From Euprymna scolopes (Eukaryota): a stretch of DNA of 64,000 bases. The position numbers and the translations under genes were made by a program. Within the stretch, counting starts at the first letter, position 1. The number at the start of each line of letters is the position of its first letter. Location: assembly GCA_053919585.1 (NCBI GenBank), contig JBSSHM010000205.1; one strand, 5' to 3'. The notes under the pieces were generated by a model. The model had not been told where the DNA came from, did no database searches, and was given only the letters and a program-made list of their open reading frames with translations. Below are positions 14,567-29,693 of the stretch, piece after piece.

Positions 14567-15328
14567 ATGCTGAAATTCATTATCTACTCTCGAAAATCTA
14601 AGAACTCTCAGTCTGGACACACTCAGCACACCCACCTTACTGCTGAATGGGAGATCAATAACTACCTACAAACTCTAGATGCACAAGGTATCCAGTATGA
14701 GGTAGTAGACTCTTACCAAGAAGATTTCTCAGGAGGTGGTTACTACACTCGCAGACCAATCTTTAAATCTATCGTAGACCGTTGTAAGGCAGACCGTTCG
14801 CTAACACTACTAGCCTCTAAAGCTGACCGTATAGCGCGTGATGCTTGGACAGGTGCGGAACTAATCAAAACTATCAATATGGTTATTGCTGCTAACCCTG
14901 ACGCCGATGACACTATGAAACAACTACTGTTTGTGATGGCTGAGAGCGAATATAACAACACTTCTAACCGATTCAAGGCAATGTACCAAGCAAAGCTTAA
15001 ACGTGCGGAGGATGCAAGAGAGGACGTTGTATGGGGGGGTTCAAGTCCTAAGTGGCAAGAGTCTTTTGCCAAGAACAAAGAGAATCATAAACCTAAGAGT
15101 CACCACGTACAAGCTAACAAAGCTATCCAGCCTGTAGTACAGACAGTAAAGGATATGATCGAATTCAGTGAAAACCGTTTGACAATGCGAGAGATTGCAA
15201 GTAAGCTTAACTCTCGTGGTATTACAACACCTCGTGGTGCACAGTGGACACAAGCAGCGATAAGCCGCCTAGTATCACGTCACAAGATCAACTATGTAAA
15301 CAAACCAAAAGGAGCACAATATGCTTAA
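14567..15328 (+). CDS. serine recombinase (resolvase catalytic domain plus short recombinase DNA-binding domain)
   Basis: IYSRKS catalytic motif, SKADRIARD, EIASKLNSRGITTPRGAQWT. Confidence 0.85.
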   Translation: MLKFIIYSRKSKNSQSGHTQHTHLTAEWEINNYLQTLDAQGIQYEVVDSYQEDFSGGGYYTRRPIFKSIVDRCKADRSLTLLASKADRIARDAWTGAELIKTINMVIAANPDADDTMKQLLFVMAESEYNNTSNRFKAMYQAKLKRAEDAREDVVWGGSSPKWQESFAKNKENHKPKSHHVQANKAIQPVVQTVKDMIEFSENRLTMREIASKLNSRGITTPRGAQWTQAAISRLVSRHKINYVNKPKGAQYA

Positions 15329-15782: not shown

Positions 15783-15990
15783 CAAAACGAAAATCATAAT
15801 CCAAAATTGACAATTGACAAAATGATTTTTAATTTTCCAAAATTCGAAAGTACCTAATGGAAAATTCATATTAGAAAACCCGTTTTCTCCCGAGCATTCA
15901 CATGTTCGGGGGGTTTTCATATCCACACTTTCATATCCTATAAATCCTACACAACAACACTCTTCAAATCTCAATTTTTATGGAACGGTG

Positions 15991-16122
15991 TACGGTAAAA
16001 GTTTTTATGGAGCTCTGTACTGTAAAACTTACAACATACTGTACTGTAAAAGTTTACAAGATATCATACTGTATAAAATAAAATACCCGTGCTATGTAAA
16101 ATACAACATACAATACTGTATA
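15991..16122 (+). repeat. cluster of TAC(T/G)GTA(A/T)A repeats at the left border of the island
   Basis: copies at 15991, 16018, 16042, 16067 and 16114. Confidence 0.6.
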
Positions 16123-16146
16123 CAATGCAAACCTTACGGAGTACGG

Positions 16147-16162
16147 TGTGACGTGGATCACA
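16147..16162. promoter_or_regulatory. CRP-type box
   Basis: TGTGA-CGTGGA-TCACA. Confidence 0.7.
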
Positions 16163-16266
16163 TTTTTATACGTCGCGCACTCTTTATAGCTACCATGGCA
16201 ACTAAAGCGCGAAGCCCATCGCTATCTGACCTGATTTTGTTTTGTCCTCCCTTAACCTTTGATACT

Positions 16267-16309
16267 AGTATAGCCGAACCACCTATAAAAACAAGTGATC
16301 CGGCTCACA
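16267..16309 (-). promoter_or_regulatory. leftward class II CRP-type promoter
   Basis: minus strand TGTGA-GCCGGA-TCACT, 21 bp, TATACT. Confidence 0.7.
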
Positions 16310-16313
16310 GTTC

Positions 16314-16541
16314 CTATACTAAAGTTTTTTCATGTTCCTTTACAAACTTAAGAATCTCCCTATGTTGGTTAGGTGCGGTCTTTCCGATCCAAGTCTTACG
16401 ACTTCCTAGCTTACTAGTAGTACAGATAAAAACCTTACCCGATTTAGTATTAACATCATAGCGTTTTGTACCGTTAACTAGTACCGTAAAATATTCTTTA
16501 TAAAAAGGGTGTTGACTTGTAACCTTTATAGAATGAAACAT
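16314..16541 (-). CDS. hypothetical phage protein
   Basis: 75 aa, downstream of a leftward promoter. Confidence 0.6.
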   Translation of the reverse strand: MFHSIKVTSQHPFYKEYFTVLVNGTKRYDVNTKSGKVFICTTSKLGSRKTWIGKTAPNQHREILKFVKEHEKTLV

Positions 16542-16573
16542 AATACTTACTCTTTGTTTGTGAATGTATGCCC

Positions 16574-16690
16574 ACTATACCTAGGTATATAGCAAGGTGT
16601 TAGGGTGTTAGTATCAAACTGTGACATCTGTCACTAAAAACTATCAAGGTTTAAGTTTCTATTGTACTTAGCATATAAGCCGCGTATATT
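16574..16690. promoter_or_regulatory. divergent promoters sharing a CRP box at 16620-16635
   Basis: TGTGA-CATCTG-TCACT. Leftward TATAGT is 40 bp away. Rightward TTGTAC-N17-TATATT. Confidence 0.6.
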
Positions 16691-16728
16691 TACCTTATCG
16701 AAACAACACAACAAAGAGAGTCATTACC

Positions 16729-17373
16729 ATGTACAACACTAAAAACATGCAAACAACACCACGTACAGCGGCGGGAAATTTTGAGGCTAAATTGTCTCAC
16801 ATTGTATTTAATGACCGTGAGACGGGTTCACTTAAAGCCTTACCAGATCACCACTTAAACCGCGTTACAGGGTACAACCGTAAGCAAGCGGATCTATACT
16901 TCCATAACCCTGATCATTTAGTCGATAATCAGGAACCAGAGTTTAATATATTATCGATCAACTATGTAGAATACGTGGGACTCCGTAAACCTTGTAATGA
17001 TTTACGATACTTTATATTTATGATTGATGCCTTGATCGGTACTGTAGATCGTGAGACAGAGAAACGATACTTAAAACCTTCCTGCGCTTACAACGTATTA
17101 CGTGAGGAGGTAGAAAACCCGAACGGCTCGCACTATAAGAGTTTTAAAAATTGGCTTAAGCTTGTAACTAAAAAGAACGTCTTTAGTATTGATGAAATCG
17201 ATATGTTATTCGATTACATGGATCGTTATTATCAAGCTATGAAACTAGTTCATGAACTACTAACAGGCGGTTTATGGGGTGGTGCTTGGTGTTCATTAGG
17301 CACTATTGAGAACTTGCGATCGCAGCTAAATACTAAAACTAAGGTGTTAGAAGCGGATCCACATAATTATTAA
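16729..17373 (+). CDS. hypothetical protein (island)
   Basis: 214 aa ORF. Confidence 0.75.
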   Translation: MYNTKNMQTTPRTAAGNFEAKLSHIVFNDRETGSLKALPDHHLNRVTGYNRKQADLYFHNPDHLVDNQEPEFNILSINYVEYVGLRKPCNDLRYFIFMIDALIGTVDRETEKRYLKPSCAYNVLREEVENPNGSHYKSFKNWLKLVTKKNVFSIDEIDMLFDYMDRYYQAMKLVHELLTGGLWGGAWCSLGTIENLRSQLNTKTKVLEADPHNY

Positions 17374-17379
17374 CCAAGA

Positions 17380-17421
17380 TGTGACATAGGTCACTGTTAT
17401 TATTTATCAGTGACCTATAAT
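17380..17421 (+). promoter_or_regulatory. class II CRP-type promoter with hairpin
   Basis: TGTGA-CATAGG-TCACT, 20 bp, TATAAT. Confidence 0.8.
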
Positions 17422-17453
17422 TAAAACTCATTCAACAACTAAGAGTACCTGTT

Positions 17454-17711
17454 ATGACAACTAAGTTTCACGCACTACAACTTAACAAAACTTTAGAGAC
17501 AGCGGTTATCAATATCTCATCTCGTAATCATATCGACCTGAATACGGTTACATTTATCGGACGCGGTAACCAACGCCTATTAGTTGGAGAGCCTAAAACA
17601 GGACGTCTAGTACGTTTAAAAGTAGTATCCACGGGTGTTAAAATCGTCGCATCAGTAAATAGTGTAATGGTAGCAACTCGCACGATCAACGGTGTAGATT
17701 TAGAGGGGTAA
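17454..17711 (+). CDS. hypothetical protein (island)
   Basis: follows promoter. Confidence 0.7.
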   Translation: MTTKFHALQLNKTLETAVINISSRNHIDLNTVTFIGRGNQRLLVGEPKTGRLVRLKVVSTGVKIVASVNSVMVATRTINGVDLEG

Positions 17712-17714
17712 GTT

Positions 17715-17954
17715 ATGAGTAAGTTAATATTTGATATAGATTGGGATTCATCGTACGATTTAGATCGGATCGCGGTAAGTGCTAACTCTAATGACACTTT
17801 TATCAATGTAGGGGTTAAGGATTCTACAGTAGATCGCGCCGCATGGATTGAGCTAAACGAAAAGCAACAAATAAAACTAGTCACAGCAATATTAGAAAAC
17901 TTAACTAATAAAGGGGTGATTATCGAACAATGTGAACTAGGTCACGGTAAATAA
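17715..17954 (+). CDS. hypothetical protein (island)
   Basis: GAGGGG SD. Confidence 0.7.
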   Translation: MSKLIFDIDWDSSYDLDRIAVSANSNDTFINVGVKDSTVDRAAWIELNEKQQIKLVTAILENLTNKGVIIEQCELGHGK

Positions 17955-17972
17955 ATCTCAACACCGTATACT
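17931..17972 (+). promoter_or_regulatory. class II CRP-type promoter
   Basis: TGTGA-ACTAGG-TCACG, 20 bp, TATACT. Confidence 0.75.
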
Positions 17973-18011
17973 TAACTTAAATCGAAAACGGCAACAAATA
18001 AGGAAAGCCTA

Positions 18012-18380
18012 ATGACTCCAGAAATGAAAGCAGTACATGAAACATTATTACAACAATGGCAAGATATGCTATCACGCGGCATTATGCCTGTTATTGAACA
18101 GACTATCAAAGGCGACAACGGAGAGACAGAGCATTTAACTGTAGATCTTCTCTTGTTTGTAAAGACTGAAGAACCTAACACAAACCGAGTACCCTATGGG
18201 CTTTACTTTTCCGGTGATTTTGAAAAGGATGTACATTTTAGCGGTGACATACAAAAGCGCGGGGATATGTATTACTTACCTATCGATGAAGTATTTTCGG
18301 ATCTAGATTACTATTTACAAACGGTATCCGAAGAGATCAACGAGGGTTATATTGTACCTAATGGTTTATTTGTGAACTAG
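18012..18380 (+). CDS. acidic hypothetical protein (island)
   Basis: AAGGA SD. Confidence 0.75.
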   Translation: MTPEMKAVHETLLQQWQDMLSRGIMPVIEQTIKGDNGETEHLTVDLLLFVKTEEPNTNRVPYGLYFSGDFEKDVHFSGDIQKRGDMYYLPIDEVFSDLDYYLQTVSEEINEGYIVPNGLFVN

Positions 18381-18431
18381 ATCACACATTACTAAAAAGA
18401 GGTTTGAATATTACTGAGCCTCTTTTATAAT
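18371..18431 (+). promoter_or_regulatory. CRP box with class-I-like spacing and hairpin
   Basis: TGTGA-ACTAGA-TCACA, 39 bp, TATAAT. Stem AAAAGAGG/CCTCTTTT. Confidence 0.7.
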
Positions 18432-18467
18432 GTGAATCGTTAACCAATGACAACCGAGGAAAAGCAG

Positions 18468-18872
18468 ATGTCAAATTATACCGAACTTAAAAACCTTCTT
18501 TCTGAAAAGCTAAACACTTTTGACTTCACACTAGATGATAGCGAACAAAGTTTTAACGTCTACCCTACGTTACATGTAAACCTATTCCATGGTGATTGGG
18601 TAAGTGTTGAAGTTGCTAAAAGCGTTTACGGTAATGTGAAATATAACAACCAGTCAATACTACATGTGAAAGTGTTACTAAATGCTTGTCAAAATTTATC
18701 AGATAATCTATCTGCACATGTATCAATATGTGAAACGGATTGCGACGTGAATCCTTTCAATCTGTCAGTTATCGGGATGTGCGGTATTCATGAAGGGGAT
18801 CAAGAATTACTGCATTTTGCAGATATCCCGACACTAATTGAAGGTATCAAAAATTTTCAATTCGAGTCCTAA
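18468..18872 (+). CDS. acidic hypothetical protein (island)
   Basis: GAGGA SD. Confidence 0.7.
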   Translation: MSNYTELKNLLSEKLNTFDFTLDDSEQSFNVYPTLHVNLFHGDWVSVEVAKSVYGNVKYNNQSILHVKVLLNACQNLSDNLSAHVSICETDCDVNPFNLSVIGMCGIHEGDQELLHFADIPTLIEGIKNFQFES

Positions 18873-18874
18873 AA

Positions 18875-18917
18875 TGTGACGGCGGTCACGGTAATGTATA
18901 AAGTGATCGCCTATAAT
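18875..18917 (+). promoter_or_regulatory. class II CRP-type promoter with hairpin
   Basis: TGTGA-CGGCGG-TCACG, 21 bp, TATAAT. Confidence 0.78.
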
Positions 18918-18962
18918 TATTTCAACTTAAACAGATAGACAACTAAACAAAAGGTAAACATT

Positions 18963-19382
18963 ATGGGCGCAGGTAACCGTTACACTTTAACTGAAGATAG
19001 CAACATTTTAGCTTATCAACTTGACACGTCTTGTAATTGTTGGGAGTCAGAGATCTATGACTGCGATTGTAATGAGAACGACCGCGACGCACTAATCGAT
19101 CACATTATGGAGCTTGATATTTGCAAGCGTTACGGGCTAACAGATAGCCGCGACCAAATTTATTACGGTGAAATGTTCATGGTCACTTTTGAGAGTAGTC
19201 ATAACGGCGATGCAATCGTGATCAATTTTGAATACCAGTCAGATTTTGAGCAATACGGACTACAGGAACATAATTACGAGAAGGCATATAACAAGCTTAT
19301 CCGACACATAAATAAAGCTTTTCCGTTGTTTGTTGGTCACGGGTACACATCAAGCTTTTACGCGGTAAAAGAAATTAAATAA
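18963..19382 (+). CDS. acidic hypothetical protein (island)
   Basis: AAGGT SD, CNC..CDC motif. Confidence 0.75.
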   Translation: MGAGNRYTLTEDSNILAYQLDTSCNCWESEIYDCDCNENDRDALIDHIMELDICKRYGLTDSRDQIYYGEMFMVTFESSHNGDAIVINFEYQSDFEQYGLQEHNYEKAYNKLIRHINKAFPLFVGHGYTSSFYAVKEIK

Positions 19383-19393
19383 CTGTCAAAAAT

Positions 19394-19435
19394 TGTGATA
19401 TAGGTCACAGCAAATAAATATCAGTGACCTATAAT
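19394..19435 (+). promoter_or_regulatory. class II CRP-type promoter with hairpin
   Basis: TGTGA-TATAGG-TCACA, 20 bp, TATAAT. Confidence 0.8.
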
Positions 19436-19472
19436 TAAACCTCATCCAATATCAAGCCTTGGAGGGCTAAAC

Positions 19473-19748
19473 ATGAAAACAACAACTATCACACAACCTA
19501 CACGCAATGCGGCACGTAAACTTAAAGCGGATATGGTAGCGGCGGGAAAAATTGCAACTGTAATCGATAACGGCTCACAGTTCAAAGGGAACGATCGATG
19601 GGGTGTTAAGATTGAAGGGCGCGAAGTCCTAGCGGCACCACGTAAACCACACGGCGGGGTGAAAGTTGAAGTCTGTAATTCATCCCCTCAACATATGCGC
19701 CGCCGCGGTTTTGTAAAGGTGATGCATAAGCGTAACAAGTTGCAATAA
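19473..19748 (+). CDS. basic hypothetical protein (island)
   Basis: GGAGG SD. Confidence 0.75.
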   Translation: MKTTTITQPTRNAARKLKADMVAAGKIATVIDNGSQFKGNDRWGVKIEGREVLAAPRKPHGGVKVEVCNSSPQHMRRRGFVKVMHKRNKLQ

Positions 19749-19791
19749 TGTGAGCTAGGTCACTGTTATTTGTTTATCAGTGACCTATAAT
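19749..19791 (+). promoter_or_regulatory. class II CRP-type promoter with hairpin
   Basis: TGTGA-GCTAGG-TCACT, 21 bp, TATAAT. Confidence 0.8.
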
Positions 19792-19823
19792 TATTTCATC
19801 GAAACAGGAAGCGGAAAATTGCC

Positions 19824-20180
19824 ATGAAAACTTTTAAAACTCTTCTTATCGCGGGACTTTTGGCAACATCTTGTAATGTTAGTGCTATCAAATATATAGC
19901 TAGTACAGACCACGGGATTAAACAGGTAGCAGCGTTAAAAGCTTGTAAGGATTACCTATCTAATGAAGGTAGTTTTGACCTAGCGGATGCATTACAGATC
20001 GCGCTTGTAGATGAATACAATGCAGACCGTAAGAAACACGGATTCTTACAATTCACTCAAACTAAAGTTTATAAGGTAGCGTATCTTAAGAATACAGTAC
20101 TTTTGAAAGATTCAAAACCCTTCCAAGTTAGATGTGAAACAATGGCAAAAGTTGTTTTAAATAAGATTATGAAAATGTGA
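19824..20180 (+). CDS. exported hypothetical protein (island)
   Basis: signal peptide MKTFKTLLIAGLLATSCNVSA. Confidence 0.7.
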   Translation: MKTFKTLLIAGLLATSCNVSAIKYIASTDHGIKQVAALKACKDYLSNEGSFDLADALQIALVDEYNADRKKHGFLQFTQTKVYKVAYLKNTVLLKDSKPFQVRCETMAKVVLNKIMKM

Positions 20181-20217
20181 TCTAGGTCACAGCAAATAAA
20201 TCCCAACAACGTATACT
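20176..20217 (+). promoter_or_regulatory. class II CRP-type promoter
   Basis: TGTGA-TCTAGG-TCACA, 20 bp, TATACT. Confidence 0.8.
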
Positions 20218-20257
20218 TAACTTAAATCGAAACGGCACAACATAAGGAAGCCCTCCC

Positions 20258-21046
20258 ATGAAACTACGTAAAACTGATAAGCAATCTGATTCAAAAGTTA
20301 TCTTGGAAGTCGGTTATATGTCTAATAATACAGAACTAACCACTACAATCAAATACATGAAATTTGAAGGTGAAGTGGTATATTGTAGCGTTAAACGAAA
20401 AGAACTGCTATCCCGTATCTGTCCCGATCTTGCTTCGCTTGAAAAAATGTATAGTGTTAACCCTAAGACAGGCGCTAATTGGTCTGACAATAGTTTAGGG
20501 CATTATATCGAACAAACTAGAAAATATTTAGGCAAGAATCCTAAAACTATCGAGGATTTTCAGGATGAGATCTCAGAATTGGCTAACGAGTTAAACACTC
20601 ATAAGGTTTTATCTTTTGGGGGTGATAACTTACCCGTCTACGCGATTGAAAAGCTACGCGACATCCTAAAAAATCCGATGGATCACGACTCAGAACGTGT
20701 AAGAAACTATCTCGAAAAAGTTACTGATAAAGTGGTGAACAACTCTTTCCGCCGTGACAGACTTAAAAAACAGGGTAATGATTTTTGTGACAGACTAGCA
20801 ACCTTGCGAGTGTTGAAGAAAATGGTTCAACACCCTTTACTAAATAACATTCCGTCACGATCTGAAGTGTGGACTATCGATCGACTATCGGACTGGGTAG
20901 GTTGTGATCGATCTCTTCTTATGCCTCTATTCTTCCTTAACAAGGAAGAGTTGGAAGAACAGATCGCGGCACTACTTCAGGGTGTACAATCTGCACGTCT
21001 AAAAGAGTTGAAGCGTTTAGAAAAGAAATTTAATCTTAAGCTGTAA
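20258..21046 (+). CDS. hypothetical protein (island)
   Basis: 262 aa, AAGGA SD. Confidence 0.75.
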   Translation: MKLRKTDKQSDSKVILEVGYMSNNTELTTTIKYMKFEGEVVYCSVKRKELLSRICPDLASLEKMYSVNPKTGANWSDNSLGHYIEQTRKYLGKNPKTIEDFQDEISELANELNTHKVLSFGGDNLPVYAIEKLRDILKNPMDHDSERVRNYLEKVTDKVVNNSFRRDRLKKQGNDFCDRLATLRVLKKMVQHPLLNNIPSRSEVWTIDRLSDWVGCDRSLLMPLFFLNKEELEEQIAALLQGVQSARLKELKRLEKKFNLKL

Positions 21047-21048
21047 AA

Positions 21049-21091
21049 CGTGAGATAGGTCACGGTATTGTTTCGCGCCGTGACCTATACT
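21049..21091 (+). promoter_or_regulatory. class II CRP-type promoter with hairpin
   Basis: CGTGA-GATAGG-TCACG, 21 bp, TATACT. Confidence 0.75.
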
Positions 21092-21225
21092 TAATCCCGA
21101 GTTAAGCGAAACGACATCAAAAACTTTTCTCAAAACTTTTTAAAATCCGGTTGACTTTTAAAATCAAGTCGGTAAGATAGTAAATAAATCCACGGCGGTC
21201 ACGCCTAACACACTAAGGTGATAAC

Positions 21226-21750
21226 ATGAACAACTACAACACAGCAACTAAGACAACTATCAAAGCAATCCGCGAACTACTTGAAGACACCTTTTCAAAT
21301 ATCGACGTAGCATCATATGAAACACAGATCGATTTGTTCCGTGCTGTACTTAAGTTTGAAGCTGAACACGGACTAGATACTACAAAAGAATGTCTTAGTA
21401 TTCTTGATGTAGCTATGTCAGCTACTGATACGGATTTAGATGATCTTTACTGTGAGTTCTCCGAAAAACTAGAAGCTATCGAATCCCGTGAAGACGACGA
21501 AAATCTTGAGCTTCCTTGTGGTGACGTGCGAATCATCGACAAAGAAGAGATTGATCAGATCTGGACTGATAGCCTTATCGAAATGATTAAAGACTGCTAC
21601 AACCTAGGCGATAACCTTCCTTCTTTTGTTGAGATTGACTGGGAAAAGACTGCTGAAAACTGTAAGGTGGATGGAATGGGGCATCATTTCGCATCATACG
21701 ACCATGAGGAGCATGAAACGGATAGTGTTTACATTTTCCGCACTAACTAA
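21226..21750 (+). CDS. highly acidic protein, possible ArdA-like DNA mimic
   Basis: D/E-rich, C-terminal EIDWEKTA...YIFR reminiscent of ArdA. Confidence 0.5.
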   Translation: MNNYNTATKTTIKAIRELLEDTFSNIDVASYETQIDLFRAVLKFEAEHGLDTTKECLSILDVAMSATDTDLDDLYCEFSEKLEAIESREDDENLELPCGDVRIIDKEEIDQIWTDSLIEMIKDCYNLGDNLPSFVEIDWEKTAENCKVDGMGHHFASYDHEEHETDSVYIFRTN

Positions 21751-21809
21751 GCCGGACATACAGGGCGGGTTAATCCCCGCCATATCTGAACAATTGAGAG
21801 GGTGATCCG

Positions 21810-22073
21810 GTGATACCTACAGAAAGAAAAGATATACAAGGGGCTAACGCTTTTATTCTTAAACACGTCAACAAAGGTTTATTTGTTGAGACAGTAGAAA
21901 AGGCAGTTAATGAGGAGTTGGAACTTTACAAGAAAATATTGGATATGCCTTTCAACCATTTTATAATGGTGCCTTTAGAAGGCGGGGCAAAATTGAAGGT
22001 ACGAAAAACCTTTACAGGGAATTTGGAAGTAACTAAGATTGAATCCGAGTTCACAACAAAAGCACGTATTTAA
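21810..22073 (+). CDS. hypothetical protein (island)
   Basis: GAGGG SD plus GTG. Confidence 0.6.
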   Translation: MIPTERKDIQGANAFILKHVNKGLFVETVEKAVNEELELYKKILDMPFNHFIMVPLEGGAKLKVRKTFTGNLEVTKIESEFTTKARI

Positions 22074-22091
22074 CAAAGAGAGATAGACACA

Positions 22092-22223
22092 ATGAAAAAG
22101 ATTTCACCAATGAAAAACACACGTAAGGTTATGGCTTCAGAGATTACAGCGGATAAAGGTTATCGCTCCGAACGTGAGAAGAAACACAACCGAGTTGAGC
22201 GCGAAGTTAAGCGCAATTGGTAA
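22092..22223 (+). CDS. small basic protein (43 aa)
   Basis: manual translation, precedes terminator. Confidence 0.5.
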   Translation: MKKISPMKNTRKVMASEITADKGYRSEREKKHNRVEREVKRNW

Positions 22224-22237
22224 AAGGTAGATAAAAG

Positions 22238-22267
22238 AAAAGCGCACCATTAACGGGTGCGCTTTTT
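22238..22267. terminator. bidirectional intrinsic terminator
   Basis: AAAAGCGCACC..GGTGCGCTTTTT between convergent genes. Confidence 0.75.
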
Positions 22268-22660
22268 GTATATATCGGGGTTGAAATTGTAGTAGTTCCC
22301 TACTAGTTCGGATCCTGTAACATCTAACCACACAACACGGTTTACCCTATTAGGCTGGATAACCTTATACTTATTACTATCAAATTTCCCTTCTTGTTTT
22401 ACGCGGGTACGCTTGATCAGTTTCACCTTTTCGAGTTTAGTTAAAGACCTGTATAAGGTGCGCTCGGATATAGCTAAATGCTTGGATACTTGATCAACGT
22501 TCGGGTAAATAGAATTATAACCATGAATCACACCTAAACCGTTCAAATAGCCGTATAAGAGTTTATCTACACTGGATAGAGGGATTGTACTAGCTTTATC
22601 CTTAAACCTTATAGCGGCTATTCTGTGAAGCTCTAAAGGCATATTGAAATATAATGACAC
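22250..22660 (-). CDS. winged-HTH protein (HTH_36 / replication-initiator N-terminus-like)
   Basis: DKLLYGYL..YPNVDQVSKHLAISERTLYRSLTKLEKVKLI..NKY. Confidence 0.7.
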   Translation of the reverse strand: MSLYFNMPLELHRIAAIRFKDKASTIPLSSVDKLLYGYLNGLGVIHGYNSIYPNVDQVSKHLAISERTLYRSLTKLEKVKLIKRTRVKQEGKFDSNKYKVIQPNRVNRVVWLDVTGSELVGNYYNFNPDIYKKRTR

Positions 22661-22713
22661 GGGAGTTCCTCCTTAAATTTCTTTATGAATTAATTATAAC
22701 ATGGTGCTTGAAC

Positions 22714-22755
22714 TGTGATCTATATCACGGTAATATGTTTGGGACGTCCTATAAT
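22714..22755 (+). promoter_or_regulatory. class II CRP-type promoter
   Basis: TGTGA-TCTATA-TCACG, 20 bp, TATAAT. Confidence 0.78.
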
Positions 22756-22796
22756 GGACACATCAATTAAGAACAACACATTTTAAGGAGTTACCC

Positions 22797-22910
22797 ATGG
22801 TTAAGTTTATTTTTATCTTAGTTTGTACATTTGGTCTTTACTATACATCGGCAGATGTGGTGGCACCTTCCTGTCAGGGTGTAGAATGTTCTTCACTTCT
22901 TAAGGACTAG
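22797..22910 (+). CDS. 37-aa exported or membrane mini-protein with CxxxxC
   Basis: AAGGAG SD, MVKFIFILVCTFGLYY...CQGVEC. Confidence 0.6.
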   Translation: MVKFIFILVCTFGLYYTSADVVAPSCQGVECSSLLKD

Positions 22911-22915
22911 GCGCG

Positions 22916-23251
22916 GTGATAAAGCATCAAATCGACTTGCTTATGATTCATAAAATTGTCGATAAAAGCACCGGACATATTACGGAGCTAAAACCTAATG
23001 ACAAGGTAGTTTATAGTTATTTACTAGCTTACCAAGGAGAAGGTTTAACCGTAAACCGGATCGCACTTGATAACGGATTGAGTGATAGTACTATAAAGCG
23101 TACTATAAAAACCTTGAAGAGTTGCGGACTATTGACAACTGAATCCACAAAACACAAAGGGCGTACGGTAACACAGTTTAATCCGAAAACCCCTACTATT
23201 AACAATTTTAAATATTACCAGATTAACGGTAATGAGTTATTCATCAATTAA
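22916..23251 (+). CDS. winged-HTH protein, paralog of 22250-22660
   Basis: DKVVYSYL..VNRIALDNGLSDSTIKRTIKTLKSCGLL. Confidence 0.7.
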   Translation: MIKHQIDLLMIHKIVDKSTGHITELKPNDKVVYSYLLAYQGEGLTVNRIALDNGLSDSTIKRTIKTLKSCGLLTTESTKHKGRTVTQFNPKTPTINNFKYYQINGNELFIN

Positions 23252-23420
23252 GGATATACCAATGAAAGATTTACTAAATACTTACAAAAATCAAGCGATT
23301 ACAAAAGCTGACTACTTTGAACCGCGTACCAACAAGCGAAAAGAAGAGAAAGGCGATCACGATCTAGATAGTACCGCTAGTGAGTGCCGTTATTCAGTTG
23401 GAACCGCCTTCACTTATTAG
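23232..23420 (+). CDS. hypothetical protein (start may be 23262)
   Basis: AAGGA SD before the internal ATG. Confidence 0.5.
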   Translation: MSYSSIKDIPMKDLLNTYKNQAITKADYFEPRTNKRKEEKGDHDLDSTASECRYSVGTAFTY

Positions 23421-23426
23421 CCAAAA

Positions 23427-23468
23427 TGTGACATAGGTCACTGTTATTATCTGACGGTGACCTATAAT
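23427..23468 (+). promoter_or_regulatory. class II CRP-type promoter with hairpin
   Basis: TGTGA-CATAGG-TCACT, 20 bp, TATAAT. Confidence 0.8.
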
Positions 23469-23508
23469 TAAACCTCATTCACGCAAACCATTTGACGGAA
23501 ATTTTATC

Positions 23509-23787
23509 ATGCGTACTAATAAATTTATTACCCTAGTTTGTTTTGACAAGAATAATTTTGATAAGTTTGAGGTTGTGCCAGTGGCAAACCTACACGGCAA
23601 GGATGTCGAGGCGTTCGCTAACACTCTTCACGATCACGGGCTTAAATGTTTCACAACATCTACAGATAAGGGTACGCAAAAGTATTTTTCACCTCACATC
23701 AAAACAGGGAATAAATTGGTTGAAAAATTTATTCAACATTGTACACTTAGAGGGGTAGAAATTAATAATCTTTTTTGGAGTATGTAA
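23509..23787 (+). CDS. hypothetical protein (island)
   Basis: follows promoter. Confidence 0.7.
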   Translation: MRTNKFITLVCFDKNNFDKFEVVPVANLHGKDVEAFANTLHDHGLKCFTTSTDKGTQKYFSPHIKTGNKLVEKFIQHCTLRGVEINNLFWSM

Positions 23788-23788
23788 T

Positions 23789-23935
23789 ATGCTTAAGAAT
23801 CTTTTAATGTTAGCTTTTGTAGCTGTTTTATGTTGGGGTGGTTATAGTCTGTTACTCGATGCAAAGCAGATCATTGAGAAAAGGAACAGTAACCTATGTC
23901 ATACGGCTGAATGTATTTTGGGAGAGGGTAAGTGA
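23789..23935 (+). CDS. 48-aa membrane mini-protein with CxxxxC
   Basis: GGAG SD, hydrophobic N-terminus, CHTAEC. Confidence 0.55.
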   Translation: MLKNLLMLAFVAVLCWGGYSLLLDAKQIIEKRNSNLCHTAECILGEGK

Positions 23936-24105
23936 TAACACAAAAGCACTTCGATATAGTATTAGGTAAGATTAAATCCTATGTACTAAAATTGTTTCTA
24001 GCTAGTTGGTTGGGTATGGTGTTTATTATCGTTTGCGCCTTTCAAGCTGATACGGTGGAGCAAATCACCATAGCACAAAACCAATTACAATCGTTTGAAA
24101 AATAA
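23932..24105 (+). CDS. 57-aa membrane protein
   Basis: GTGA coupling, central hydrophobic helix. Confidence 0.5.
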   Translation: MITQKHFDIVLGKIKSYVLKLFLASWLGMVFIIVCAFQADTVEQITIAQNQLQSFEK

Positions 24106-24114
24106 GGGCAAACT

Positions 24115-24510
24115 ATGATTACACAGCAAGATATCAAGAAAGATTTAGAACAGGTATCTAATACGATATTAGATATGAGTGACAGTAAACTTATGGAGAT
24201 TTTCACTTGTAACGAGTATCAACAAGTGTTTACCCATCAACGTTACATAAGTCTAAATCCGGAAAAACTATCCGAGCTTTTAGGAGAGGTATACTGTAAG
24301 AAGGTTTTAAAGATACCTTACCGTTTATGTTTTATTCACGCCGCAATCGGGAAAATAGGCGGTATGAATATGTCCTATGATGATCTTCTAAATCTTTGCG
24401 AAGAACGTCGCAAGTTTGCCCAATGGGTATCCGATAACTCGGAAAATCTGGCTAAAGCTATGATAAATAACAAGAATTTAAGACAGTGGCAAAAATACGA
24501 CGTCTTATAG
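24115..24510 (+). CDS. hypothetical protein (island)
   Basis: 131 aa ORF. Confidence 0.7.
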   Translation: MITQQDIKKDLEQVSNTILDMSDSKLMEIFTCNEYQQVFTHQRYISLNPEKLSELLGEVYCKKVLKIPYRLCFIHAAIGKIGGMNMSYDDLLNLCEERRKFAQWVSDNSENLAKAMINNKNLRQWQKYDVL

Positions 24511-24515
24511 TAAAA

Positions 24516-24558
24516 TGTGAACCCGATCACGGTTTTATGTGGTCGGGTTTAGTATTAT
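24516..24558 (+). promoter_or_regulatory. class II CRP-type promoter with hairpin
   Basis: TGTGA-ACCCGA-TCACG, 21 bp, TATTAT. Confidence 0.75.
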
Positions 24559-24611
24559 AAACGTGTTGAGAGGATGTCCTCCAACATAACCCAAAACTCG
24601 GAGCGCACAAC

Positions 24612-24797
24612 ATGCTTACAATCTTATCCCTTATCCTTTCTGGCGGTGAAGTGGTTACAATTACGCAACCGGATTTAGAGACTTGCCTAAACTCACAAGA
24701 AAAGGCGATTCTTGCAGGGCATAAGGCAACATGTGACTTAATCACTCCGGAGCAATGGGATCAACAATTACAGCAACTTATCAACAAGCAATCTTAA
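24612..24797 (+). CDS. small hypothetical protein (island)
   Basis: GGAG SD. Confidence 0.6.
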   Translation: MLTILSLILSGGEVVTITQPDLETCLNSQEKAILAGHKATCDLITPEQWDQQLQQLINKQS

Positions 24798-24807
24798 GGA
24801 TCATATT

Positions 24808-25044
24808 ATGTCATATGTAGTAACCTATTACACTCGCGCCGTGGCTACCGTTCAAAGTTTCCACAACACTAAAAAGGAAGCACAAAAGGCAATGGCTGAC
24901 GACATCAAAGAGGTTAAAACCTCATACCCTCGCAACTCAGGTTATAAAAAGGCAGGTTCTATTGCGTCCGGACGTGTTACCTTTGAGCACCCTTATTACG
25001 GGGTGGATTACGTTTGTAAACTAGAGAAGAATCCCGCCAATTAA
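24808..25044 (+). CDS. hypothetical protein (island)
   Basis: AAGGA SD. Confidence 0.7.
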   Translation: MSYVVTYYTRAVATVQSFHNTKKEAQKAMADDIKEVKTSYPRNSGYKKAGSIASGRVTFEHPYYGVDYVCKLEKNPAN

Positions 25045-25050
25045 TCAAAG

Positions 25051-25093
25051 TGTGACTTACCTCACAGCAATCTGATCGGGGTTAATCTATTAT
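25051..25093 (+). promoter_or_regulatory. class II CRP-type promoter
   Basis: TGTGA-CTTACC-TCACA, 21 bp, TATTAT. Confidence 0.78.
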
Positions 25094-25145
25094 TAGTTTG
25101 TCGGCGGATAACGTCAAACATTAACCCCTTTTAGGAGTATTCCTT

Positions 25146-25757
25146 ATGGATAACATCACTAAATCACTTTTTAACCTAACATCTACAAATAACGGTTTTT
25201 TCAAGTCTGAAAAGCAAGCGGACTTCCTAAAGTCTTACACGGTAGACGGTTCAACAATTTGGGGATCGAGTTCATCAACTTACGGTAATGTAACACAGCA
25301 AGTATTCTTTTTAGATTCTGAAGGCGTTACAGCGGTTAAAACGTGGTCACAGAAAAAGCAATCATTTACCCGCACCACTTGGGAACGTAAGACCGATGCA
25401 GCCTTTGCAGCCCTTAAAGTTGCAAAAGCCGTAGCCGATGAGAAGAAATCTGTTTTACGTACTAGACTTGATAAAATTCACAACCGAGTAAATGAATTAC
25501 GTAACCTTAAGGATAAAACTTTAGCTAAACTGTCTATGACACTCGTAACAGAGTTTTTAGAAGCAACTGAAGGGAAGTCTAAAGAAGAGGTTAAAAAGCT
25601 TTCCAAGCCCTTTATGGAGCGTAATAACAAGGTCAAAAAGCTTAGTGATAATGTTGAGCCGCAAATTCGACGCCTGTTTGATAAATCGTATGAATTAGAG
25701 CGCGAATTATGCAACGTTACCTCAGAATTTCGCAAACTGTACGCAAACACTAAATAA
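25146..25757 (+). CDS. hypothetical protein with coiled-coil C-terminus (island)
   Basis: AGGAG SD. Confidence 0.75.
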   Translation: MDNITKSLFNLTSTNNGFFKSEKQADFLKSYTVDGSTIWGSSSSTYGNVTQQVFFLDSEGVTAVKTWSQKKQSFTRTTWERKTDAAFAALKVAKAVADEKKSVLRTRLDKIHNRVNELRNLKDKTLAKLSMTLVTEFLEATEGKSKEEVKKLSKPFMERNNKVKKLSDNVEPQIRRLFDKSYELERELCNVTSEFRKLYANTK

Positions 25758-25807
25758 TACCAGCGGGGAGAAATCCCCGCCTACTCGACAACATCAATAA
25801 CTAATAA

Positions 25808-25850
25808 TGTGACTTTTGTCACAGCATTTTAAAACTAGATAACCTATTAT
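25808..25850 (+). promoter_or_regulatory. class II CRP-type promoter
   Basis: TGTGA-CTTTTG-TCACA, 21 bp, TATTAT. Confidence 0.78.
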
Positions 25851-25914
25851 AGCCTTGTACCAACGAGGTACAACAACACAAACTTTATCAATAATTAGTC
25901 TAGAGGGCTTTATT

Positions 25915-26292
25915 ATGTTTTTATCTGAATTCAACTCATACCTAGTAACATGTGGCGAGGGAAACGATTTACGTACTTTGAAAGTAAGTGGTGAAGATTT
26001 GAAGACCGTTTTTGCAACATTTCCCCGTGTAGTGTGTATTGAAGAAATTCATACTTTTGAAATCTACGTTAAAAATCAGGAAGGTGTACGTGGATGGGAT
26101 ATCAAGTTTATTCAAAGCACTGATAAACTTATCAAGACTTTCCCGCTATTTGATTGTATTATCAGTAAGAACGATCACATTCCGGCGGATCTATCAGAAC
26201 ACCTAACCTATGAAGGGGCGGACTATCCTCACGGAGGAGTTTTCCTACCTAATACCGAAAAAAGCGAAAATGGGAAATTCTACTTATCGTAA
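25915..26292 (+). CDS. hypothetical protein (island)
   Basis: GAGGG SD, ATG at 25915. Confidence 0.7.
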   Translation: MFLSEFNSYLVTCGEGNDLRTLKVSGEDLKTVFATFPRVVCIEEIHTFEIYVKNQEGVRGWDIKFIQSTDKLIKTFPLFDCIISKNDHIPADLSEHLTYEGADYPHGGVFLPNTEKSENGKFYLS

Positions 26293-26322
26293 ATAAACCG
26301 TACAGCGTTTAAAGCTCCTGTA

Positions 26323-26342
26323 AGCCCCGTGAGGGGCTTTTT
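26323..26342 (+). terminator. intrinsic terminator
   Basis: AGCCCC-GTGA-GGGGCT-TTTT. Confidence 0.75.
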
Positions 26343-26395
26343 GTCGTGGGGTGGTATGATTCATCAAATAAGTTGCTAAAACCTTAAATAACAGG

Positions 26396-26491
26396 TTATC
26401 CACAACGGGCACGGTGTACGTACAGCAAAAAGCCTCACAAGATAAGAAAAGGTGTACATAGTAGTGATTGTTGTGAGTATCTTGTGGATAA
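26396..26491. promoter_or_regulatory. two inverted consensus DnaA boxes
   Basis: TTATCCACA at 26396-26404 and TGTGGATAA at 26483-26491, in an intergenic gap. Confidence 0.65.
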
Positions 26492-26517
26492 CTTTTATTA
26501 CTCCCTTTATACCAAAA

Positions 26518-26560
26518 TGTGACTTACATCACAGCACTTTAAAACCTAATCGCTTACTAT
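26518..26560 (+). promoter_or_regulatory. class II CRP-type promoter
   Basis: TGTGA-CTTACA-TCACA, 21 bp, TACTAT. Confidence 0.78.
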
Positions 26561-26619
26561 TGTTTTGTACCAACGAGGTGCGACAACTTAACCCTTTAAC
26601 TCTCTCTGGAGAAAACATT

Positions 26620-27060
26620 ATGTCTACTGAATACACACTTACATTTGATAACTGTTTTATTGACGCTTTTGATGTACCATACCGTGCACATCCTATCTTT
26701 TCTGATCTGTCTGCTTTTGTTAAGACCTTGCCGGAAAATCTAAAAGATCTAGTTTCGTTTGTAGATGAATATCAACTTGAAGGTGCCGATCTTGATGTGG
26801 TACTAACTCTGGAGGCGGAACAAATTTCCGTAATGTGGGAAGCTTTTCAAGAAGGTACGATCGCAAAGTTTAAAGATAATGGCTATGTAGCTAGTCACTA
26901 TTACAAGGGTTATATAGTGGAGTTGGATAAGGCACACGGTAAAGTGTTTATTTTATCAAAAGGAAAGGATGTGAGAGTTTCAACCGCGGCAACTGGAGAA
27001 CTGGACAGTTTAGAAGGGGCGAAAAAGTTTATCGACTGGGCAGAGACTTTTAATTCATAG
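26620..27060 (+). CDS. hypothetical protein (island)
   Basis: GGAG SD, ATG at 26620. Confidence 0.72.
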   Translation: MSTEYTLTFDNCFIDAFDVPYRAHPIFSDLSAFVKTLPENLKDLVSFVDEYQLEGADLDVVLTLEAEQISVMWEAFQEGTIAKFKDNGYVASHYYKGYIVELDKAHGKVFILSKGKDVRVSTAATGELDSLEGAKKFIDWAETFNS

Positions 27061-27103
27061 TGTGATCTAGGTCACTGTTATTATCTTAATAGTGACCTAT
27101 AAT
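27061..27103 (+). promoter_or_regulatory. class II CRP-type promoter with hairpin
   Basis: TGTGA-TCTAGG-TCACT, 21 bp, TATAAT. Confidence 0.8.
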
Positions 27104-27140
27104 TAAACCTCATTAAACAACACGGCAATAAAAGCACGTT

Positions 27141-27527
27141 ATGAAAATCCTAGTTAAAATCCTAAAAGTTGAAGACAATACAGTTACTTATCAAGAACTT
27201 AACCGCACAACCAAGGCTGTTATGATTGAAGATTTTATGTCAATTGAACAGTTCATCAATGCACTTAACCATGAAACTTTTGGATTCGAGTTGGCAGAAA
27301 TGAACAAACAGCAAGCTATCAAAACCGCGGCAATGTTCGGAGCGGTGATCACAAACTGGGATTACTGCCGCGTACTTCAAAACTTTTCAGCTACTGTAAA
27401 CACTAAGCATGAATACGATAACGGTTATGGTTACATGAAAAACGAAATCTCAATCACAACATACTCGCAAGCCCACCTATGCCGTATGGCTATCGTTGAA
27501 CACCACACTTACAAGGGAGATAAATAA
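27141..27527 (+). CDS. hypothetical protein (island)
   Basis: follows promoter. Confidence 0.7.
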   Translation: MKILVKILKVEDNTVTYQELNRTTKAVMIEDFMSIEQFINALNHETFGFELAEMNKQQAIKTAAMFGAVITNWDYCRVLQNFSATVNTKHEYDNGYGYMKNEISITTYSQAHLCRMAIVEHHTYKGDK

Positions 27528-27528
27528 T

Positions 27529-27795
27529 ATGTACCTTATTATTGATTCAACTGTCACAATTATGGAAACAGGACGTCGTACGGTAAGCACTTGGTTGATC
27601 GTCGCCACTGGTAACGGGTGCGGTGGATGGGATTTTCATGAGCATCAGACGGGACGCCCATTCTTTTATCAAAAAGATGAACTAAACGCAGTAAATGGTA
27701 TGTTATCCCGTCTACAGTTCCCAAATGTATCGGTTACCGAAACTACTAACGGCAATCATCGACAAATCAATACAAAAACCGTCACACTACTATAA
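27529..27795 (+). CDS. hypothetical protein (island)
   Basis: GGGAG SD, ATG at 27529. Confidence 0.65.
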   Translation: MYLIIDSTVTIMETGRRTVSTWLIVATGNGCGGWDFHEHQTGRPFFYQKDELNAVNGMLSRLQFPNVSVTETTNGNHRQINTKTVTLL

Positions 27796-27806
27796 AGAGG
27801 ATTACC

Positions 27807-28112
27807 ATGCGAACAGGTATTAAGGGCGTTAACAACCTAGGTAATAAAATAATTTACCGTTCTAAATCTGCTATAGCAGGGGGCGGGGGTGTGAGACTTG
27901 TCAAGGTGTACGGAGTAGGCGAACAGCTAGCCCAGATTCTTATTGAACGCCACTTAACCATACACCGTGAGGGTGAAGCACACATCACTGATAATGGAGG
28001 CTCGATCTCCGTCGTGATAGTATCAAAAAGTCGTGAGATCTATATAGACTATATCCCTGAAAAAGGGCGATTGCTAATATTCACTGACTTTGAGCCGGAT
28101 CCTGATAAATAG
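27807..28112 (+). CDS. hypothetical protein (island)
   Basis: GAGGA SD. Confidence 0.7.
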   Translation: MRTGIKGVNNLGNKIIYRSKSAIAGGGGVRLVKVYGVGEQLAQILIERHLTIHREGEAHITDNGGSISVVIVSKSREIYIDYIPEKGRLLIFTDFEPDPDK

Positions 28113-28155
28113 TGACCTACTTCACAGAATACCCCGTCCAGTACGGGGCTATTTC
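28111..28155 (+). terminator. CRP-type box followed by a terminator hairpin
   Basis: AGTGA-CCTACT-TCACA, then CCCCGT..ACGGGG. Confidence 0.6.
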
Positions 28156-28256
28156 TTACCGTTTTACCGTACACCATTTAAACGCTCTGTAAGGCTCTGT
28201 ACGGGGTTTTTGTACTTAATGCGGGTGTTTATACCTCTTTTGTGATTTGACGGTTT

Positions 28257-28299
28257 TGTGACCTAGGTCACTGTTTTTATAATCTAGGAAGGTTACTAT
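28257..28299 (+). promoter_or_regulatory. class II CRP-type promoter
   Basis: TGTGA-CCTAGG-TCACT, 21 bp, TACTAT. Confidence 0.75.
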
Positions 28300-28346
28300 A
28301 TAGACCTAGACACAAAACACCTAAACAACCTTTTTGGAGAAACACC

Positions 28347-28586
28347 GTGAACGCACAACAAATTATCAAAACCCTAGCGGCTAACAATATTGCATCGGCT
28401 ACAGTAGCACCTAAAACAGTAGGGATCACAGTTGGCGATTGGGTAGCCGTGATTGTACAACCTACCGCCGCGGGGATCGAAGTCTCTTTAGTAGCTCAAA
28501 AGACTTTAACACCTGTACAAACTGAATACGGTAATAAGTACAATTTTGTGAGACTTGTCACAGAACTTTTAGAGCAAGTACAGTAA
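28347..28586 (+). CDS. hypothetical protein (island)
   Basis: GGAG SD plus GTG. Confidence 0.7.
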   Translation: MNAQQIIKTLAANNIASATVAPKTVGITVGDWVAVIVQPTAAGIEVSLVAQKTLTPVQTEYGNKYNFVRLVTELLEQVQ

Positions 28587-28589
28587 TAT
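28547..28589 (+). promoter_or_regulatory. class II CRP-type promoter embedded in the 3' end of a CDS
   Basis: TGTGA-GACTTG-TCACA, 21 bp, TAATAT. Confidence 0.68.
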
Positions 28590-28643
28590 TAAGTCTCTGG
28601 CGGGGGTAACCCGCCTATAACCACACCAATTTGGAGATACCCC

Positions 28644-29012
28644 ATGTTATTATCAGAGTCTCGCATTACAGCCACAAATGAAATCAATATCAACATCTGG
28701 GGGTCTCGCATGTTCCGTGCAAGCTTCCCAAAACAAATCACTTTCGATGGCAATATTGAATCAGAATCTAATAGTGTAATGGTGGCACTTTCTTACACTG
28801 GCAAGGATGGGGTTTTGTATGGTTCATCTATCAAAGGTCACATTGTAGGCAACACGATCCGACTAGGCGCAAAAGGTGTTAAAGGTCAGGTAACTAGCAA
28901 CTATGACGGCGAACCCCTAGAGCTAGTAGTTTTAGACCGTCAAGGCAAGGTTATCCACCGTCAACCGTTCGGTAAAGCGGCAAAGGTTAAAGACCACGGT
29001 CATACTAAGTAA
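28644..29012 (+). CDS. hypothetical protein (island)
   Basis: GGAG SD. Confidence 0.7.
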   Translation: MLLSESRITATNEININIWGSRMFRASFPKQITFDGNIESESNSVMVALSYTGKDGVLYGSSIKGHIVGNTIRLGAKGVKGQVTSNYDGEPLELVVLDRQGKVIHRQPFGKAAKVKDHGHTK

Positions 29013-29013
29013 A

Positions 29014-29056
29014 TGTGACATACATCACAGAACGCCCCGCCTAGTGCGGGGTTTTT
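29014..29056 (+). terminator. CRP-type box followed by an intrinsic terminator
   Basis: TGTGA-CATACA-TCACA, then CCCCGC..GCGGGG-TTTTT. Confidence 0.7.
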
Positions 29057-29063
29057 CATGTTA

Positions 29064-29106
29064 TGTGAGTTTGATCACAGTATTACTTATCCAGACCACC
29101 TATTAT
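29064..29106 (+). promoter_or_regulatory. class II CRP-type promoter
   Basis: TGTGA-GTTTGA-TCACA, 21 bp, TATTAT. Confidence 0.78.
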
Positions 29107-29165
29107 TAACTTGTACCGAGAAGGTATAAAGCAAATTTTTCAACACCCCATTTGGAGTCTACATT

Positions 29166-29366
29166 ATGACACGTAAAGAAGCTAAACAAGCTATTCAATC
29201 TGAACTAAACGCTATCCACGGCAGCCCACTAGTAAACATGATCACATCAGAACATGATTACCTTATCGGCGGTGTTAAGACTGGACAACTTACAGCAAAA
29301 GAGGCGGCAAATAAGATCATGGCTGCATATACTTCAGAATGTACTAAACTGTTTAACGCTCGATAG
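29166..29366 (+). CDS. hypothetical protein (island)
   Basis: GGAG SD. Confidence 0.68.
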   Translation: MTRKEAKQAIQSELNAIHGSPLVNMITSEHDYLIGGVKTGQLTAKEAANKIMAAYTSECTKLFNAR

Positions 29367-29379
29367 GAGGACATCCCCC

Positions 29380-29646
29380 ATGAAAATGATTAACACTGAC
29401 AACTGTAAAGCATTCACAACCGAACTACTTAAAGTTAGCCGCGGTACTCATCCCGACTACTACGGAGATCGCCTATACAACCGCGACGCTGTACTGACAA
29501 AGTTAGCAATAGAACAACCGAAAAAGGCGCTTGATTTCGCCCTTGAAATTCAGACCCTAGACCCTGACACCCTAGGGGTGCACCCTAACACCCTGAAGAT
29601 GTGGGCTAACACATTGACCCGACAAGTACAACTCAACATCAAGTAA
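29380..29646 (+). CDS. hypothetical protein (island)
   Basis: AGGAGG SD, ATG at 29380. Confidence 0.7.
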   Translation: MKMINTDNCKAFTTELLKVSRGTHPDYYGDRLYNRDAVLTKLAIEQPKKALDFALEIQTLDPDTLGVHPNTLKMWANTLTRQVQLNIK

Positions 29647-29647
29647 A

Positions 29648-29693
29648 TGTGACCTACATCCCACAAGCCCCGTATATCACGGGGTTATTTTTT
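29648..29693 (+). terminator. degenerate CRP box plus intrinsic terminator ending the island
   Basis: TGTGA-CCTACA-TCCCA, then CCCCGT..ACGGGG-TTATTTTTT. Confidence 0.65.

Follow-up and report, generated by a model that had tools for sequence, protein, structure and literature searches.

A CRP box that doubles as a hairpin arm at the gene joints of a phage contig: a probable variant of the promoter-early stem-loop cassette

Introduction

Cassettes that join the end of one phage message to the promoter of the next have been described in the T4-type phages RB49 and phi1 as promoter-early stem-loops, or PeSLs (Arbiol et al. 2010, PMC2839356). In that paper, most PeSL stems lie in the interval from the -35 box to the -10 box or overlap the -10, G-T pairs occur in them, one stem terminated transcription in vivo, and the role proposed for the unit is to close one transcript, open the following one, and act as a site of exchange (PMC2839356). 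The PmSL of Vibrio phage nt-1, a Mot-box middle promoter with a stem-loop, is described by Comeau et al. 2014 (PMC4122927), and the idea of one unit that both ends a message and starts another is already published as the PeSL design (PMC2839356, PMC4122927). Here we describe a repeated 45-base element that forms the joint between early genes in a 64,000-nucleotide stretch of DNA (the window), in which a perfect match to the site of CRP, the regulator that switches the host's response to sugar starvation, also supplies an arm of a hairpin.

The window covers the initial 64 kb of a contig (JBSSHM010000205.1) of 78,426 bases within the 5.9-Gb Euprymna scolopes assembly GCA_053919585.1. Its content is phage throughout, with densely packed genes and a ribonucleotide reductase, PhoH, and a ligase, and the contig is most likely a marine phage sequenced together with the eukaryote DNA; a search of the same assembly found no second copy of the region that holds the joints. 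The phage is kin of the Vibrio phages RYC, eugene, and ICP1, and a 690-residue protein at 10923 has 44-50% identity to proteins of Vibrio phages 193E37-1, RYC, 1.101.O, 11895-B1, and 1.170.O.

Results

The original prediction, made from the letters of the window, held that hairpins lie over the CRP promoters of this region, the right part of each box pairing with sequence that abuts the -10 hexamer. All eight stems it had named were found in place, and they fall into a long-loop and a short-loop type:

17380-17421, + strand: CRP box with long-loop stem at 17386-17418 and -10 TATAAT at 17416-17421; 7 nucleotides after a stop codon.
18875-18917, + strand: CRP box with long-loop stem in the second register at 18881-18911, one G-U; -10 at 18912-18917.
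19394-19435, + strand: CRP box with long-loop stem at 19399-19433; -10 at 19430-19435.
19749-19791, + strand: CRP box with long-loop stem at 19756-19787; -10 at 19786-19791.
21049-21091, + strand: CRP box with long-loop stem at 21055-21088; -10 TATACT at 21086-21091.
23427-23468, + strand: CRP box with long-loop stem at 23433-23465, one U-G; -10 at 23463-23468.
24516-24558, + strand: CRP box with short-loop stem at 24520-24549, one U-G and a partly U-rich tail; -10 TATTAT at 24553-24558.
27061-27103, + strand: CRP box with long-loop stem at 27068-27099, one G-U; -10 at 27098-27103.

The box, its fixed distance from the -10, the stem, the one-sidedness of the stem, and its place after a stop codon are all read directly in the sequence. 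When each spacer was shuffled 300 times with the box and the -10 kept in place, every one of the eight stems came out ahead (p = 0.013 at 18875 and 0.003, the lowest value attainable, at the other seven), and as RNA all eight have a predicted pairing probability of about 1. The helices comprise 9-14 stacked positions, with 11-14 in six of the eight, two of these with a T-T mismatch; the two T-T mismatches, at 17380 and 19749, both sit in inner, extended parts of the stem. The mismatches at 18875, 23427, 24516, and 27061 are G-U on the + strand, as had been claimed, and none is A-C. The arm at 24516, however, does not abut the -10, because its last G-C pair stops 5 nucleotides short of it.

The promoters themselves show a consistent geometry. 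With the box defined as TGTGA-N6-TCAC, 26 of the 30 + strand matches in the window fall within 16147-30494, and in 16 of these 26, picked regardless of any -10, a -10 hexamer stands 20 or 21 nucleotides downstream. Across 14 Vibrio phage relatives, -10 hexamers peak at spacers of 21 (31 of 155 boxes), 39-40 (27), and 49-50 (16) nucleotides, against a maximum of 7 per position on the mirror side. With the start site assumed 7 nucleotides after the -10, a spacer of 21 centres the box at -41.5 (class II), and 39-40 brings it near -60 (near class I); CRP activates from -41.5 or -61.5 (PMC6050953). GTGA and TCAC are invariant in the 17 class II boxes listed, which were selected by that same motif. 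Each of five complete relatives has its boxes in one cluster of about 7-13 kb, and the ICP1 cluster, with spacings of class II and near class I promoters, is at 4178-10960. The contig that holds the window is incomplete, but since no Crp-type helix-turn-helix protein scored above the cut-off in any of the five complete relatives, the boxes are likely read by the CRP of the host. The overlay that had been claimed for these promoters is present at 8 of the 17 class II boxes of the window and missing from the other nine:

17931-17972, + strand: class II CRP box and -10, no overlay stem; likewise at 20176, 22714, 25808, 26518, 28257, 28547, and 29064.
25051-25093, + strand: class II CRP box; the 3' arm in its spacer is of the short-loop type and is no match for this box.

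The association of stem with promoter extends well past the window. In 16 phage regions (the window, 14 Vibrio phages, and phAPEC8), stems were scored in a strand-neutral way, with G-U and A-C both counted as mismatches and a threshold of 7. Of the 90 boxes with -10 geometry, 24 have a stem downstream, whereas a stem on the mirror side occurs at 4 of these 90; among boxes that lack the geometry, 4 of 127 have one, and 200 spacer shuffles gave a mean of 2.1 stems and never more than 6. The 24 divide into 8 of 18 in the window (one of the 18, 29648, has a false -10) and 16 of 72 in the other phages. At sites that combine a box with TATAAT, 14 of 50 in phages bear a stem versus 10 of 120 in bacteria (p = 0.0015), a rough control in which the bacterial sites are among the matches listed and the 80 listed rows are mostly non-Vibrio. 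The ten bacterial stems are all A/T-rich.

The two stem types differ in where they end and what follows them. Short-loop stems have loops of 4-8 nucleotides, end 5-10 nucleotides before the -10, and run into a U-rich tail; they were found in RYC, eugene, 1.193.O, F88, VnaP, 1.161.O, 1.084.O, and P018-4, and those of ICP1 fall just below the threshold. The stem at 24516 is of this type with a weaker tail and is borderline as a terminator. Long-loop stems, which make up seven of the eight in the window and recur in eugene, F88, 1.161.O, VnaP, and (twice) 1.170.O, have loops of 5-15 nucleotides and two registers three bases apart, and in 12 of 13 the last G-C pair falls 0-1 nucleotide before the -10. 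A terminator formula, which passed three of five plain hairpins of the window, rises above zero for 8 of 11 short-loop versus 0 of 13 long-loop stems. The 8-nucleotide tail holds 4 U in seven of the window stems, 5 at 24516, and 6-7 in the short-loop stems of the relatives. The short-loop stems with a U-run would thus seem to be ordinary intrinsic terminators; the suggestion that the main type of the window is a terminator as well does not find support, because none of the 13 long-loop stems scores above zero.

It had further been claimed that the distal arm changes along with N6. Pairing is indeed kept, but six of the eight window stems share TAGGTCAC and are near-copies, and the matching arms of 18875 and 24516 stand in other registers and so do not amount to column-by-column compensation. 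Within the window, then, what looked like covariation is mostly copying or register shift, with little true compensation beyond one position (T-A, G-C, and T-G at box position 15). In the comparison among phages, nine same-register stems from three phages have 94.9% of their cells paired, with double changes at 5 of 11 pairs, a level reached in none of 500 shuffles and by none of the slid controls. When an element is given the arm of one that differs in N6, the mean score falls from 8.7 to 4.6, and among the stems compared the loops vary and the arms do not. G-U outnumbers A-C by 23:2 over all stems and by 16:2 in 18 de-duplicated stems (two-sided p = 0.0013); counted as distinct types the ratio is 8:2 (one-sided p = 0.055 with a null of 0.5, and 0.005 with a null of 0.35, the value from chance stems), and in the window alone 4:0 (one-sided p = 0.06 and 0.015 with the same nulls). 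Transitions in a related strain lack strand bias (A>G plus C>T 328, versus T>C plus G>A 344), and hence 0.5 is a fair null for the decay of a perfect repeat. From this G-U excess, and from the retention of pairing in the relatives through G-U and double changes, selection likely acts on pairing of the + (RNA-like) strand, as the original prediction proposed, with few independent events behind it. In the element at 14278 of 1.161.O, the CRP box itself reads CCAC instead of TCAC, which turns the customary U-G wobble into a C-G pair, a gain in stem strength at the cost of box quality.

The position of the stems relative to the genes bears on what they do. A stop codon lies 1-12 nucleotides before all eight stem-bearing boxes of the window, with open reading frames downstream, and the stems lie 7-16 nucleotides after the stop. 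A trailing ribosome may hinder stems close to a stop codon; a literature search on the distance from stop to stem found nothing. Of the boxes that directly follow a same-strand stop, 19 of 52 bear a stem; where the stop is distant or a separate hairpin stands upstream, 1 of 15 does (p = 0.022). In the window alone, the figures are 8 of 13 versus 0 of 4 (p = 0.053). This preference agrees with a function for the stem at the 3' end of the message from the gene before, and the claim that one element ends one gene and starts the next is supported insofar as the stems are one-sided and placed right after stop codons. The overlay stem is nonetheless optional. Three further boxes stand directly after a stop codon, promoterless, and perhaps are relics of exchange at the box:

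28111-28158, + strand: CRP box, then a separate GC hairpin, no -10.
29014-29060 and 29648-29695, + strand: CRP box, then a separate GC hairpin with a U-run, no -10.

A related strain, whose contigs are mostly 90-99% alike, has other genes ending immediately upstream of the boxes at 17380 and 24516, as well as joints at 17932 and 29012. Among its 23 listed breakpoints in 16000-29700, 8 lie inside an element, two of them as the ends of a single repeat-to-repeat joint, and 4 come within 6 nucleotides of where a box starts (p = 0.002). In four eugene-like phages, with the breakpoint window chosen first, 3 of 31, 5 of 39, 7 of 32, and 6 of 30 breakpoints lie inside elements (p = 0.48, 0.15, 0.01, and 0.04); in a window chosen afterwards, 4 of 16, 5 of 18, 3 of 15, and 4 of 15 block starts lie no more than 15 nucleotides before a box. 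Given that gene ends and boxes fall together, these results show promoters moving along with the genes downstream of them, and not that the element drives the exchange. The stretch 24513-24554 has no change in two related strains among the changes listed. The element at 25051 is probably a recombinant of two others, because its short-loop-type arm does not fit its own box; in two related strains, its box is exactly that of 26518.

The joints are embedded in an array of small genes, with a recombinase upstream of it and two putative regulators within:

16729-29646, + strand: array of small co-oriented genes, mostly one gene per promoter.
14534-15328, + strand: serine recombinase (Resolvase and Recombinase domains), upstream of the array.
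22250-22660, - strand: winged-helix protein (phrog_22534), inside the array.
22916-23251, + strand: second, related winged-helix protein (phrog_22534), inside the array.

A PHROG match is absent for 24 of the 28 array proteins tested, and the array is presumably the early region. It extends to a gene-poor stretch at about 29700-31300, where the coding strand and the GC skew switch, a probable genome end or origin; this stretch has a strong local strand bias and three further CRP-like boxes (29845, 29894, and 30494). The nearest relative of the recombinase is that of ICP1 (49%), with others in many Vibrio phages and in Phapecoctavirus, and no match in RYC or 1.084.O; short-loop stems do not require it. 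Neither winged-helix protein has a Crp-family match, and the two are candidate regulators of the early region; in the relatives a single winged-helix gene of this kind closes the array on the opposite strand.

A megablast of 16000-30000 against phages gave no match, blastn of 17001-25000 gave short pieces only, an IMG/VR search with the protein at 15988-16461 gave no related loci, and exact-pattern scans of IMG/VR gave 1, 14, and 5 loci with no array-bearing relative among them. One of these loci, a 36.9-kb contig of a different phage, bears several promoters of the class II CRP type, distributed over both strands, and lacks overlay stems. Among the sequencing runs listed for this DNA, none was of RNA.

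Discussion

The reading that best accommodates these results, to which we assign a rough probability of 0.62, is that each joint is a cassette boundary at which host CRP starts the next gene and the box is at the same time the 5' arm of a hairpin at the 3' end of the preceding message. Host CRP and sigma70 polymerase would start each cassette at a box 20-21 bases before its -10, and polymerase arriving from the preceding cassette would copy box and spacer into an RNA that folds into the stem. Where the loop is short and a U-run follows, the stem would terminate transcription. Where the loop is long, the A/U-only -10 region would make a poor tail, and the stem might stop part of the polymerases at best; it would be left behind at the end of the upstream message, shielding it from 3' exonucleases. 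We would guess that the -10 serves there simply as the only weak tail available to a long-loop stem. The sequence shared between box and -10 could also supply a short homology through which modules of box, promoter, and gene are swapped.

Several of our own results weigh against this reading. The tails of the long-loop stems hold just 3-5 U in 8, their loops reach 15 nucleotides, and not one of the 13 scores as a terminator; moreover, a plain 3' stem needs no exact end at the -10, yet 12 of 13 last G-C pairs come within 0-1 nucleotide of it. The pairing count over nine elements used sequences picked for their stems, with the structure read from those same sequences, and RNAalifold, applied to all 13 long-loop elements in mixed registers, returned the 4-bp palindrome of the box itself and did not recover the stem. 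The wobble events are not independent, and as 8:2 distinct types give p = 0.055 at a null of 0.5. The preference for stop codons has p = 0.18 in the relatives alone, where 28 of 39 boxes right after a stop have no stem. As to exchange, the first-chosen breakpoint window is significant in two of the four eugene-like relatives, the stronger result comes from a window chosen afterwards, and boxes coincide with gene ends anyway.

One rival takes the long-loop stems to be sites at which RNase III, or another nuclease, cuts a long early transcript into single-gene messages, much as RNase III processes the early region of T7 into single-gene messages. The missing U-run would then be no obstacle, and the 11-14 stacked positions in six of the eight window stems agree with the minimal reactive helix of E. 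coli RNase III, 11 bp, although typical substrates extend over two helical turns (PMC1540722). The other two stems have 9-10 bp, the short-loop relatives of the same element do bear U-runs, and cutting leaves the fixed end at the -10 unexplained; we therefore regard processing sites as improbable.

No more can be said for the view that the stem is a passenger without function, derived from a single ancestral inverted repeat that copying has distributed over the promoters. Six of the eight window elements being near-copies is what such spread would produce, nine class II boxes do without a stem, and a related strain seems to have a stem-type spacer at the stem-less 20176 element (a joint from 17420 to 20217, with 26 letters on one side). 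However, two registers with differing sequences keep their pairing in six phages by way of wobbles and double changes, loops vary while arms stay, and stems favor boxes right after a stop codon, all of which makes idle copying a doubtful account.

A more specific proposal, which we advance as a long shot, would give the exact end at the -10 a function: the long-loop element would act as a polymerase relay, in which RNA is released within the melting zone of the next promoter and the retained polymerase restarts in a manner dependent on cyclic AMP (cAMP) and CRP, so that the carbon state of the host would gate the relay. Retention of polymerase on DNA after termination is described in PMC6978322. 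If such a relay operated, host CRP would control the first genes of a whole clade of lytic Vibrio phages, ICP1 included, one cassette after another.

Slightly less likely still is that the stem acts in DNA, as a non-template hairpin, a cruciform, a second CRP half-site, or a serine recombinase site: the 3' arm is registered on the -10 and not on the box, single-stranded DNA likewise tolerates G-T as its mismatch, and a recombinase lies nearby in all six phages with long-loop stems, but a cruciform or protein site would treat the two strands alike while G-U exceeds A-C, the GTGA half-site is lost from the arms of relatives (GTGG, ATGG, GTAG) with pairing kept, box-based stems occur in RYC and 1.084.O, where no recombinase match was found, and ICP1 and phAPEC8 have the recombinase with no long-loop stems in the stretches read.

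Returning to host CRP and a hairpin that share one box, the predicted arrangement is a transcription-factor site that also serves as an arm in an RNA stem. Of broader interest is the set of promoters itself: in the relatives, ICP1 included, the early region is dense with CRP-type boxes at distances from which CRP activates, and the first genes are thus predicted to depend on the host cAMP level, which suggests an early program gated by host cAMP in a lytic clade. Reportedly, one paper on phage T1 concerns control by cAMP-CRP. In the literature searched, which mostly excluded subscription journals, no description of CRP-box arrays in these phages was found.

Comparison with known systems

As promoters, the boxes resemble class II CRP promoters (PMC6050953), with TGTGA-N6-TCACA centred at -41.5, and the relatives add sites near -61.5. 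They differ from bacterial box-plus-TATAAT sites, where a stem is rare (10 of 120), in that boxes here come at about one per gene over 12-14 kb. As hairpins, the short-loop type resembles intrinsic terminators, with its GC-rich stem, 4-8-nucleotide loop, and U-run just after the stop, and the long-loop type departs from them in its loop of up to 15 nucleotides and its 3-5 U in the tail.

Among phage cassettes, phAPEC8, which belongs to a related group, carries at 18673-22590 repeated -35/-10 promoters, annotated as PHIRE 'promoters', and an identical short leader hairpin comes after every one of them. This order of promoter and then leader hairpin is a different design from the CRP-box joint. 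The Mot box of the PmSL is read by a phage protein, unlike the box here, which fits host CRP in a lineage whose relatives encode no CRP. Still, the PmSL of nt-1 offers a parallel, in that an activator box there replaces the -35 of a promoter/stem-loop cassette; in the accessible part of PMC4122927, the Mot box is not described as an arm of the stem, whereas here the box is the arm.

The closest likeness is to the PeSL. Both are repeated intergenic units in a variable region of small unknown genes, and in both a stop codon comes first, next a promoter whose stem-loop overlaps its boxes or lies between them and admits G-T pairs, and then a ribosome site and a start codon. A PeSL has a sigma70 -35 hexamer (TTG...) 17 nucleotides before the -10; 56 -35/-10 matches of that kind were counted, the eight stem sites do not figure among them, and so the element is not a strict PeSL. 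The -35 gives way to a CRP box at -41.5, and this box forms the stem's 5' arm. By lineage the phage belongs with RYC, eugene, and ICP1-like phages rather than T4-like ones, and the main type in the window is U-less and ends at the -10. The element stands apart from a PeSL by its CRP box, by the employment of that box for the 5' arm, by the phage lineage, and by the U-less type. The best reading of the element is as a CRP-box variant of the PeSL design that, on present evidence, would work as a PeSL does, which extends that cassette design to RYC/eugene/ICP1-like Vibrio phages.

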